Positions 42,123-45,015 of a stretch of 64,000 nt of DNA are shown here, in pieces. The notes beneath the pieces are model-generated. The model was not told where the DNA came from. It saw only the letters and a program-made list of their open reading frames with translations, and did no database searches. Position 1 is the first letter of the stretch; each line of letters begins with the position of its first letter. Both the position numbers and the translations under genes were made by a program. Where the stretch lies: the NCBI GenBank assembly GCA_964549395.1, contig CAZJVY010000001.1:59990-123989 (forward strand), in the 5' to 3' direction. The stretch comes from an uncultured Armatimonadia bacterium. Lineage in GTDB: Bacteria; Armatimonadota; Zipacnadia; Zipacnadales; UBA11051.

Positions 42123-42968
42123 ATGATGGGTGCGGGACCGGTACGTGAGCCAATCGTCGCCGGACAGTTTTATGAGGGACAAGCCGACGCCCTGCGACGC
42201 CAGATCGCGAGCTGTTATACCGGAGCGCGCGGGCCTGGCCGACTGCCTCAGGTGAACCCGAGCGGTCCGCGAGCGATTGTGGGGCTGGTGAGCCCACATG
42301 CCGGATACGTCTTCTCGGGTGCAATTGCGGCCCACGGGTTCTCACGCGTGGCGCAGGACGGAGTTCCCGATGCCGCAGTAATCATCGGTCCCAGTCACCG
42401 CAGCCCGGTACCGGCGCTGCAGACGACGGGCAGTTGGCGCACGCCGCTGGGGGATGTGCCGATCCACGAGCAACTGGCCGGTGCGATTGCCGAGCGACTG
42501 CCACGGTTTCATGACGGGCCGGATGGCTTCTCCAGCGAGCATAGCATCGAGGTGCAGGTACCGTTCGTGCAGCACTTGTATGGGGATTCGTGCGCGATTG
42601 TGCCGATCATGGTAGCACGCCAGGATGCGGCCGAGAGCCGCCAGGTCGGAGAAGCGATTGCTGCGGCGGCTGTGGAGACGGACGTGCTGATCATCGCCAG
42701 CACCGACATGACCCACTACGAGCCGGCCGAGATGGCGATGGCGCAAGACAAGATACTGATTTCGCTGATGGAGAGGATGGACGCGGAGGGACTGCTGCGA
42801 ACCCGGCCGGACATCAGCATGTGCGGCCGTGGGCCGGTGGCGGCCATGCTGATTGCGGGGTCGGCATTGGGTGCAACGCGGGCCGAAATGGGGGCGTACG
42901 GCCATTCCGGAGAGGTGATTGCAGGCTCCGGCGTGGTCGGATATGTGTCAGTTGTGGTAAGCAGATAA
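42123..42968 (+). CDS. amrB: AmmeMemoRadiSam system protein B (MEMO1 family)
   Basis: AG.FY, PHAGY.FSG, GPSH, EHSIEVQ.PF, STD.THY, MCG.GP, VVGY. Confidence 0.92.
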   Translation: MMGAGPVREPIVAGQFYEGQADALRRQIASCYTGARGPGRLPQVNPSGPRAIVGLVSPHAGYVFSGAIAAHGFSRVAQDGVPDAAVIIGPSHRSPVPALQTTGSWRTPLGDVPIHEQLAGAIAERLPRFHDGPDGFSSEHSIEVQVPFVQHLYGDSCAIVPIMVARQDAAESRQVGEAIAAAAVETDVLIIASTDMTHYEPAEMAMAQDKILISLMERMDAEGLLRTRPDISMCGRGPVAAMLIAGSALGATRAEMGAYGHSGEVIAGSGVVGYVSVVVSR

Positions 42969-43014
42969 GCCGTCAAGAGAGCGAGAATCGTGGAAACCGA
43001 TTCTCCTTGACGGC
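42969..43014. repeat. Interrupted 17-bp inverted repeat (terminator or operator) overlapping a -35 box
   Basis: GCCGTCAAG/CTTGACGGC plus GAGAATCG/CGATTCTC, immediately after the amrB stop. Confidence 0.75.
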
Positions 43015-43035
43015 ATCCGAGTTGTCCACTATAAT
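43007..43035 (+). promoter_or_regulatory. Near-consensus sigma70 promoter
   Basis: TTGACG-17 bp-TATAAT. Confidence 0.88.
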
Positions 43036-43041
43036 GCCTAC

Positions 43042-43190
43042 AGTCAAACCACTGAGTCGCCGCACTCATCGTCGCAGCAATCCCCACAGACCTGGGTTCG
43101 ACAATGAACGGGTTCATTCCCGATAGCACGGGCGGGGTCCATATGTGTCGCCACATAACACATAGTGCCGGCAGGCCCAAGCAGTGCAAG
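43042..43190 (+). ncRNA. Candidate structured ncRNA, 6S RNA-like rod with central bubble
   Basis: Manual pairing: 43050-54/43182-86, 43059-66/43164-72, 43082-85/43134-37, 43094-96/43119-21, apical 43103-08/43113-18; starts just downstream of a consensus promoter. Not checked by covariance model. Confidence 0.45.
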
Positions 43191-43210
43191 GTCGCCGCGA
43201 GGTGGGGCGA

Positions 43211-43678
43211 ATGACGTGGCTTGACTTCTTGACCATAGGGCTGTGCCTGATTATGATGGTCATAGAGGTCAAACGCGGTGCAGTCTGCGCGATCATCGAC
43301 ACTGTCGGAATCTGGATCGGCCTCAAGATAGCCGCCCTCTCCTTCCAAGGCATGTCCTCCCCGCAATTCTCACAGTCCGCTGCCTACCTGACCATATTCC
43401 TGGTGTTTGCGGCAGTCACGATCGTCATTTCCAGTCTTGTGCAGCGACAGCTCAAGTCGGACCTCGGGCCATTTGACTCAACCATCGCGGCCGTTTTGGG
43501 TTTATTTGTCGGCCTATGCTTCTCGCACGTGTCGTTCGGTTTCAGCGCTCTGCACTTCGGTGTTGAGTACAAGGCCTTTGCGGATTCGGCGATGCGCGGG
43601 CAGGTCTATGAACTGCACGCAATCCGCGGTTTCCTGGACTTCATGAGTCGAATCGGCAGTAGCGACGTGGCCGGCTAG
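43211..43678 (+). CDS. cvpA: CvpA (colicin V production)-family membrane protein
   Basis: M.WLD......G pattern, D......LG...G, four TM segments. Confidence 0.72.
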   Translation: MTWLDFLTIGLCLIMMVIEVKRGAVCAIIDTVGIWIGLKIAALSFQGMSSPQFSQSAAYLTIFLVFAAVTIVISSLVQRQLKSDLGPFDSTIAAVLGLFVGLCFSHVSFGFSALHFGVEYKAFADSAMRGQVYELHAIRGFLDFMSRIGSSDVAG

Positions 43679-43788
43679 TGGTGGCTTCGAGAAGTCCACG
43701 ATGTGATGGCGTCGCGGAGGACAGGCAGGGATGCCTGTCCTCCGCGGAACAGCCGGGACGCGGACTTGCGCACGTGACTGATAGAGAC

Positions 43789-44223
43789 ATGACAGGCATG
43801 AACAACGCGGTCGCCAAGAGAGAGTATGACCTGTCCGACGTGGATTTGCTGCGGGAGCGCATGGGCGTTGGCTATAGGAATGCTCGGGACGCGCTGGAAG
43901 CTGCGGACGGCAACGTGGTGGATGCTCTGGTTTGGCTTGAGGAGAATACCGGTGCCTCAGACGCGGACCTGAATGCCTTCGGAGAACGTATAGCGGAGAA
44001 AGTAAGGGAGGTGATGGCCGGGCGCGAGATAACGGACATCCGGATGACACTCTTGGATAAGATGGTATGCCAGTTTACAACGGCTCTCGGGGGACGCGCC
44101 GCGGCAGTGGCGGTAGTGCTGGGGGAGCTCATCTCGCATTGCTGTATCGAACTGCAGTATGGTCCAGTTGGCGAGTCGGAACCATCAGACGGTGATGTGA
44201 GTCTGAACCATTCAGGAGACTGA
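43789..44223 (+). CDS. DUF4342-like protein with N-terminal EF-Ts/UBA-like domain
   Basis: VD.LRERMGV.Y..ARDALEAADGNVVDAL.WLE resembles the UBA-like N-terminus of clostridial DUF4342 proteins. Confidence 0.7.
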   Translation: MTGMNNAVAKREYDLSDVDLLRERMGVGYRNARDALEAADGNVVDALVWLEENTGASDADLNAFGERIAEKVREVMAGREITDIRMTLLDKMVCQFTTALGGRAAAVAVVLGELISHCCIELQYGPVGESEPSDGDVSLNHSGD

Positions 44224-44234
44224 GGAGCCGAAGC

Positions 44235-44921
44235 ATGGTCAATCCTGCCGAGTTCTTTCGCGAGGCGGCCCAGCGGAGACGGGCGCTTCCGTATCAACCT
44301 CTTTCCGACGAAGAACTGGTGCGACGGGCGCAGGATGAACAGGATACAGAAGCTTGTGAGTATTTGTTGTACAAGTACCGGAACCTGGTTAGATCGAAAG
44401 TGAAGTCGTACTTCCTACAGGGGGCCGAGCGGGACGATCTGCTGCAGATCGGTCTCATCGGGCTCTGGGAAGCGATAACGGACTTCAAGGCAGACCGCCA
44501 CACCTCGTTTGCGTGCTTCGCCAAGGTGTGTATCCAGCGGCAAATGATCTCGGCCATCAAGGCGGCTACCCGTCAGAAGCAGACGCCCCTGAATTCCTCG
44601 ATTTCTCTGGAGGCCCCGCCGAATGGTGACGAGGAGGACCGCGGGCTGGCGGAGGTGCTGAATGCGGACACGCACATAGACCCGCAGACGCTGGTACTGG
44701 GTAGGGAAGGCGAGCGAGTACTCAAGGAGACACTGCGCGACGAGCTCTCGCCGTTCGAGTGGGAGGTGCTCTCCGAGTACCAGACGGGCAAGTCGTACAA
44801 GGAGATGGCCAGCGTACTGAACTGCAAGATCAAGTCAATAGACAATGCGCTGTCGCGGATACGACGCAAGCTTCCGAAGGTCGCGCCGGAACAGGCTGCG
44901 AGGCTGCGCACTGAAGAATAG
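44235..44921 (+). CDS. sigH: RNA polymerase sigma factor SigH (Spo0H orthologue)
   Basis: YFLQGAERDDLLQ.G.IGL, F..FAK.CI.RQ.ISAIKAATRQKQ.PLNS..SL, K.IDNAL.R.RRKL, all diagnostic of the B. subtilis SigH family. Confidence 0.92.
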   Translation: MVNPAEFFREAAQRRRALPYQPLSDEELVRRAQDEQDTEACEYLLYKYRNLVRSKVKSYFLQGAERDDLLQIGLIGLWEAITDFKADRHTSFACFAKVCIQRQMISAIKAATRQKQTPLNSSISLEAPPNGDEEDRGLAEVLNADTHIDPQTLVLGREGERVLKETLRDELSPFEWEVLSEYQTGKSYKEMASVLNCKIKSIDNALSRIRRKLPKVAPEQAARLRTEE

Positions 44922-44953: not shown

Positions 44954-44978
44954 ACGGCGCTCGGAGCAGGAGCGCCGT
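44954..44978 (+). terminator. Hairpin after sigH (probable terminator)
   Basis: ACGGCGCTC/GAGCGCCGT 9-bp stem followed by GTCATTTT. Confidence 0.6.
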
Positions 44979-45015
44979 GTCATTTTGCCTGAGGCGGAGG
45001 GCGGAGTGGAGAGCC

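Follow-up and report, generated by a model that had tools for sequence, protein, structure and literature searches.

Upstream open reading frames (uORFs) whose stop codon overlaps the start codon of the gene behind them are established in other bacteria. In Mycobacterium tuberculosis the leader ORF uPPE2 lies out of frame with ppe2, its UGA shares an AUGA with the main ORF and its peptide is poorly conserved; this uORF is needed for ppe2 expression, on which it acts by termination-reinitiation, and ppe2 itself lacks a Shine-Dalgarno and sits behind a B12 riboswitch (PMC11260477). A survey of Sinorhizobium meliloti used a Shine-Dalgarno together with a start codon to predict uORFs, and reporter assays confirmed them, showing either coupling or occlusion of the ribosome-binding site (PMC13285730). 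Rho-dependent attenuation in long 5' UTRs has also been reviewed (PMC12360218). A short translated ORF in an operon leader is also found in the trpL and hisL attenuators and in the ermCL, secM and mifM arrest leaders. 6S RNA is a different kind of molecule, a discrete transcript of about 180 nt which binds the RNA polymerase holoenzyme and templates pRNA.

We set these systems against the leader of a sigH operon in a window of 64,000 nt (the whole stretch of DNA analysed here) from an uncultured member of the Armatimonadota, a phylum in which, to our knowledge, almost no gene regulation has been studied. The leader carries a putative uORF which resembles uPPE2 in lying out of frame, in sharing an AUGA with the main ORF through its UGA and in its poorly conserved peptide. 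It differs from the ppe2 case in that the downstream gene, cvpA, has a strong Shine-Dalgarno of its own, no riboswitch or other structure was detected in the leader, and the case is known from sequence alone. As in S. meliloti, the short leader ORF overlaps the main ribosome-binding site, so that any ribosomes translating it must cross the main Shine-Dalgarno, but its own Shine-Dalgarno is weak and the evidence for it is comparative. The long, C-rich, G-poor, unstructured leader ahead of a regulatory gene, in a genome which encodes Rho, also recalls Rho-dependent attenuation, though the C over G skew is moderate (1.27). With the attenuators and arrest leaders it would share the short translated ORF, but it has no conserved run of regulatory codons, arrest motif, terminator/antiterminator pair or hairpin hiding the ribosome-binding site. 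It resembles 6S RNA (RF00013) in being ~170 nt long, in having a strong promoter and in being tied to a sigma factor through its neighbours, whereas it lacks a covariance match, a conserved rod or bubble, excess folding energy and a 3' end before cvpA. By defining features the leader falls outside the 6S RNAs, the riboswitches and the leader-peptide attenuators, and it shows the features of a stop-start-overlapping uORF that can be read from sequence, namely a candidate start with an open frame, the AUGA overlap and a frame apparently kept beyond chance. No new principle is involved, because uORFs of this kind are already established elsewhere; the interest lies in the comparative evidence that one heads a highly conserved SigH-type operon in a phylum whose regulation is essentially unstudied.

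A promoter, a long leader and three genes

The features of the locus, in window coordinates, are as follows.

Ending at 42968: Memo/AmmeMemoRadiSam-B gene, the upstream neighbour of the leader
43007 to 43035, plus strand: sigma-70-type promoter, TTGACG (-35), 17-nt spacer, TATAAT (-10), 11 of 12 consensus positions
43042 to 43210, plus strand: 5' leader of the cvpA-like/UBA-like/sigH operon, ~169 nt
43042 to 43103, plus strand: C/A-rich stretch of the leader with a conserved sequence and no consensus structure (alignments, RNAalifold)
43042 to 43052, plus strand: conserved block AGTCAAACCAC
43078 to 43087, plus strand: conserved block CAATCCCCAC
43091 to 43103, plus strand: conserved block CCTGGGTTCGACA
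43104 to 43214, plus strand: putative uORF of 36 codons, MNGFIPDSTGGVHMCRHITHSAGRPKQCKVAARWGE, its TGA (43212-43214) overlapping the cvpA ATG (43211-43213) as ATGA
43119 to 43132, plus strand: small possible hairpin CCCG-ATAGCA-CGGG, inside uORF codons 6-10, in the block TCCC...GGGCG
43199 to 43205, plus strand: Shine-Dalgarno of cvpA, GAGGTGG, within the 3' end of the uORF
43211 to 43678, plus strand: gene for a cvpA-like membrane protein of 155 aa, which opens the operon (Pfam Colicin_V, E 1.5e-4)
43678 to 44223, plus strand: middle gene, 181 aa, whose only similarity is a weak one to UBA-like/NAC domains (residues 46-90)
44235 to 44921, plus strand: gene for a sigma factor of the SigH family, 228 aa (NCBIfam PRK08295.1-5, 'sporulation sigma factor SigH')
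44954 to 44988, plus strand: terminator-like hairpin with T-rich tail at the operon end, the hairpin itself at 44954-44978

An earlier sequence-only reading of this DNA had pointed to a near-perfect promoter ahead of the first coding sequence, and there is one: TTGACG-17-TATAAT lies at 43007-43035, 175 nt 5' of the cvpA-like ATG at 43211. Judged from the position of this promoter, transcription probably begins near 43042. With the promoter upstream of it and three genes followed by a terminator-like hairpin downstream, 43042-43210 forms the 5' leader of an operon of three genes; within the leader, or anywhere before cvpA, no terminator-like site was detected. The start codon of cvpA is fixed by an N-terminus, MTW(L/P)D, which is kept in all relatives, and the Colicin_V match of its product (E 1.5e-4) falls under the Pfam gathering score. 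The sigH label given earlier holds, with 225.3 bits against a cut-off of 208 for the NCBIfam SigH model, but the label 'DUF4342' for the middle gene is unsupported, as the 43678-44223 product shows no DUF4342 match in Pfam even at E<=10. Directly 3' of the Memo-like stop there is also a nested palindrome (42969-43014, GCCGTCAAG/CTTGACGGC, inner arms GAGAATCG/CGATTCTC), the right arm of which includes the -35 box TTGACG; it is not evident by eye in the upstream regions of relatives.

Conservation of the promoter, the leader and the gene order

A blastn search with the leader against 40 relatives gave no useful match; homologous leaders were instead reached through the CvpA protein in genomes and metagenomes, which yielded ~40 distinct upstream regions. 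A TTGAC...TATAAT or TATACT promoter is found 5' of cvpA in nearly all relatives, order-wide, followed by a leader of 172-189 nt in the window's own genus and its sister genus, of 141-186 nt in other genera of families f1 and f7, and of ~81-87 nt in two further families. The order of genes from cvpA to sigH, with the small gene between them, is kept in 25 of the 25 related loci checked, which span several families (L005-L070). Across these loci SigH is far better conserved than CvpA or the middle gene, at 66-89% identity (78-89% over most of the order's loci) against 28-74% for CvpA. The gene upstream of the promoter differs between relatives, so the promoter and leader belong to the cvpA-sigH operon. 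On these comparisons the conserved feature, throughout one order of the Armatimonadota, is a strong promoter followed by a long leader ahead of cvpA-like/UBA-like/sigH.

Within the own and sister genus approximately the first 95 nt of the leader are kept as blocks at the nucleotide level: AATCACACCAC at the 5' end, CAATCCCCAC, then CCTGG(G/A)TT(C/T)GAC(T/A)ATG and TCCC-N6-GGGCG. The last ~75 nt are unalignable (22-55% ungapped identity), the Shine-Dalgarno of cvpA excepted. A motif CACA(A/C)TCC recurs at -109 to -139 in several genera, and the C/G ratio over the first 100 nt is 1.27 in the window and 1.05-1.8 in relatives.

The leader is not a folded RNA

On the sequence-only reading the interval was a divergent 6S RNA, and a bona fide 6S gene elsewhere in the genome was named as evidence that would count against it. 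Such a gene exists: a full-length RF00013 match of 81.6 bits lies on the minus strand of contig C37 (31483-31665) of the same genome, G000. The 6S call also finds no covariance-model match and no compensatory support for its rod, and by the criteria set out with it the call is refuted. The proposed searches with Rfam 6S (RF00013) and riboswitch models returned no relevant match, either here or at 14 related loci: over the whole window at gathering score only a tRNA was matched, over 42900-43350 at E<=10 there was nothing relevant and no RF00013, and the loci of the 14 relatives likewise gave nothing relevant. This removes a false non-coding-RNA call and locates the real 6S gene of the genome, which is also indexed as locus L001:1501-1683. 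A literature search returned nothing relevant on 6S RNA in Armatimonadetes, nor on sigH together with cvpA.

Folding energies are those of ordinary sequence, with a minimum free energy of -58.1 kcal/mol for the 174-nt stretch against -56.5 +/- 4.1 for dinucleotide shuffles (z -0.40), and a mean z of +0.18 over 28 homologous leaders. The individual elements described earlier can be found in this sequence, but they fare poorly in others. The stems CACTG/CAGTG, GCCGCACT/AGTGCCGGC and CCCC/GGGG do pair as described but none is kept in relatives, and the inverted repeats AATGAA/TTCATT (43103-43118), TATGTG/CACATA and TATGTGT/ACACATA are all present but do not exceed chance. When the covariation check was made on an alignment of 16 relatives, 47.8% of cells in the proposed rod were paired, and column shuffles gave 47.2%; sliding the partners gave 35-44%, the share for rod helices 1-4 and 6 was 31-55%, and the AATGAA/TTCATT hairpin, at 33%, is not kept. 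The consensus fold from RNAalifold reached -2.6 kcal/mol for the whole leader and 0.00 kcal/mol for the part upstream of 43104, and an all-against-all column scan for pairing found nothing above 3-bp stacks. The only helix kept in relatives is helix 5, the hairpin at 43119-43132, with 81% of cells paired and a C-G to G-C exchange in one lineage; it is a weak candidate of 3-5 bp, and is broken in L014, L093 and L094.

The pentamer GTCGC does occur four times (43056, 43071, 43147 and 43191), as had been noted, but the repeats are not conserved, homologous leaders holding 0-2 copies, and they are marginal against shuffles, 5.7% of which contain some 5-mer at least four times; we rejected them as a functional motif. 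The suggestion that the last copy pairs over the cvpA ribosome-binding site has no comparative support, and this site is no more paired than with a shuffled upstream leader (0.35 vs. 0.37 unpaired). In the window CCCCAC (43082-43087) can also form a long-range pairing with GTGGGG (43202-43207), but this was rejected because, over 13 lineages, cognate duplexes of the CAATCCCCAC-type block (43078-43087 here) with the ribosome-binding site are no better than non-cognate ones (P=0.99). No riboswitch expression platform, whether an intrinsic terminator or a helix hiding the ribosome-binding site, was found in the leader, and across the own genome and 14 loci the leader neither recurs before several genes nor matches a described riboswitch family.

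The idea that the interval is a divergent 6S-like RNA, another stably folded non-coding RNA or a riboswitch can draw on the strong promoter and on inverted repeats that exist in this one sequence, and has to be held against the absence of RF00013 or any other relevant Rfam match at E<=10 here and in the 14 relatives' loci, a separate 6S gene at 81.6 bits, a z of -0.40, a rod paired as often as its shuffles (47.8% vs. 47.2%) with nothing beyond 3-bp stacks, and no terminator before cvpA; we find it scarcely credible. The leader is neither a free-standing nor a stably folded RNA. The fallback offered earlier, a new cis-regulatory leader, survives in the broad sense of a conserved, single-copy 5' leader, but what is conserved is a frame and blocks of sequence, not a folded RNA.

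Some folding features were seen in other genera or in this genome alone. In other genera of the family (L015, L017, L018, L019, L058-L062) the 5' part of the leader, read by eye, holds a hairpin with the loop GUGGGG, and CCCCAC follows at a distance of 55-80 nt. L059 and L060 have GUGGGA and UCCCAC at these places, a possible compensatory change pointing to a long-range pairing that is absent from the genus of the window. In this genome only, the uORF start codon lies in the stem of a perfect 6-bp hairpin (43103-43118, AATGAA-CGGG-TTCATT), which could lower initiation on the uORF in this species.

An open frame that ends on the start codon of cvpA

The frame which begins at ATG 43104, the conserved ATG of the block CCTGG(G/A)TT(C/T)GAC(T/A)ATG, 69 nt past the -10 box, is open to 43214 and out of frame with cvpA, its stop sharing ATGA 43211-43214 with the cvpA start. 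We examined it in 21 sequences from ~9 lineages of the own genus and the sister genus. All 21 have an ATG-initiated frame ending on ATGA, which in nearly all of them is 35-38 codons long. The conserved ATG is spaced 104, 107, 110 or 113 nt from the cvpA ATG, that is, the spacing changes in multiples of three. Between these two ATGs there are no stops in the uORF frame vs. 34 and 29 in the other two (0/17/10 in nine representative lineages), and when the count is confined to the unalignable 3' part it is 0/10/2 (Fisher P=0.006, for lineages that are not fully independent), one of the other frames having just 2 stops there. Leader ATGs are distributed over the frames as 30 in the uORF frame, 2 and 7. 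L012 has lost the conserved ATG and L011 has it out of frame; there a different in-frame ATG opens a coupled ORF of 29 or 32 codons, and L089, the third member of the L011/L012 clade, has the standard 36-codon frame. On the opposite strand no frame is kept open, and a conserved antisense ORF was rejected.

Per sequence, 8-28% of shuffles contain an ATG-initiated, coupled ORF of 24 codons or more, so a single sequence proves nothing, and it is the consistency over diverged lineages that counts. These shuffles speak for a plain long 5' UTR with no regulatory role, in which the conservation would reflect promoter-proximal constraint and recent ancestry and the frame would be there by chance; the lack of structure, the absence of any sequestering of the ribosome-binding site and the unconserved peptide sit well with it. 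It has difficulty with a frame that stays open in ~9 lineages through a 3' half at 22-55% identity, with length changes in threes, with ATGs biased to one frame, and with a leader length kept across families, and we judge it distinctly unlikely.

The frame is probably not there for its product. Peptides cannot be aligned past the first ten residues and the C-terminal two thirds differ freely, the alignable start coincides with the nucleotide-level block and hairpin, and in the first 12 codons differences fall evenly on the codon positions (198/194/184). Among close relatives non-synonymous codon changes far outnumber synonymous ones, and GC content by codon position is flat (0.61/0.56/0.63) with no GC3 bias, unlike the neighbouring genes. 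By every measure except the missing stops and the placement of ATGs the frame looks non-coding. A functional small protein was rejected as the main reading for want of codon periodicity, GC3 bias and a family match; an N-terminus of the form M-x-(I/V/F)-(S/A)-x-P-(N/D/Y)-x-(L/M)-G, partly kept within the genus, speaks for one, but the even differences, the unalignable C-terminal two thirds, the flat GC, the lack of a Pfam match and the overlap of the kept stretch with the nucleotide block and hairpin make it very improbable. The free variation of the peptides between lineages, with no terminator-like site, also led us to reject a leader-peptide transcription attenuator.

Initiation signals differ between the two ORFs. 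The Shine-Dalgarno of cvpA is predicted to pair with the 16S tail at -7.7 kcal/mol here and at -5.8 to -11.3 in relatives, whereas that of the uORF is weak (-2.2 to -4.0 kcal/mol predicted) and in several lineages within the background of the leader; accessibility around the uORF start is unremarkable. As cvpA has a strong Shine-Dalgarno of its own, coupling is not obviously needed.

Outside the clade of the own and sister genus there is no such frame: these other genera and families keep the promoter and a similar leader, with almost no ATGs. The older function of the leader does not need the uORF, because genera and families with the same promoter lack it, and the distribution fits a uORF added in one clade to an older leader. 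The leaders of other genera and families L016-L020 and L059-L070 fold worse than dinucleotide shuffles (z +0.8 to +3.1) and contain almost no ATG triplets, as if selection had kept structure and upstream starts out of them.

How the leader might act

The pattern fits a uORF selected for translation to its end without selection on its product, and we consider it probable that the leader, itself conserved, carries a translated uORF that is coupled to cvpA and whose peptide is irrelevant. Transcription would start near 43042 and ribosomes would load at AUG 43104, downstream of the conserved, unstructured C/A-rich stretch. They would then traverse what remains of the leader, and with it the cvpA Shine-Dalgarno, and stop translating at the AUGA, on the start codon of cvpA, where they might re-initiate at cvpA, or else modulate independent initiation there and so determine how fast cvpA is translated. 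During translation they may also cover the C-rich leader and protect it from Rho, which we put forward as a hypothesis on what uORF translation might counteract. The act of translation would matter and the peptide would not. We infer from sequence comparison both that the uORF is translated and that this affects cvpA and sigH, upwards or downwards.

The conserved blocks allow another explanation, in which the leader acts in cis through its sequence and the open frame is incidental. The blocks would then be bound by a protein, by a small RNA or by Rho, or would be a DNA operator immediately 3' of the promoter. Much of what is conserved suits it: the 5' 95 nt are kept at the nucleotide level without codon periodicity and without consensus structure, CACA(A/C)TCC stands at a similar distance from cvpA in genera that have no uORF, the 5' part is C-rich (C/G 1.05-1.8), shuffles fold better than the leaders of other genera do (z +1 to +3), and the genome has a gene for Rho. 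It leaves unexplained the count of 0 vs. 34 and 29 stops and the 30/2/7 distribution of ATGs, it has no known partner, and the C over G skew is moderate; nhmmer of the own genome found one copy of the leader only, hence no multi-copy element or regulon-wide motif. We regard this explanation as rather unlikely.

If the coupled, translated uORF is real, it offers the first concrete handle on the control of a highly conserved SigH-family sigma factor in Armatimonadota, and adds a further AUGA-coupled uORF, kept purely as an open frame, that was found by comparison alone. A bolder proposal, which we think doubtful, is that the uORF is a clade-specific translation sensor of the SigH-type operon, in which coverage of the leader would set the output of CvpA-like protein and SigH, via Rho or AUGA re-initiation, on top of an older, order-wide, unstructured C/A-rich element. 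Expression of an alternative sigma factor would then be tied to the translational state of the cell.

Gene calls across the leader

Some public gene calls extend cvpA through the leader, probably wrongly. In the lineage of L008, where the frame of cvpA itself chances to stay open 5' of its start, cvpA is for this reason called at 246 or 265 aa (L087, L088), running through the leader. The public call in L094 is instead a 139-aa 'gene' in the uORF frame, ending on ATGA. The calls in L087, L088 and L094 are probably all over-extended.
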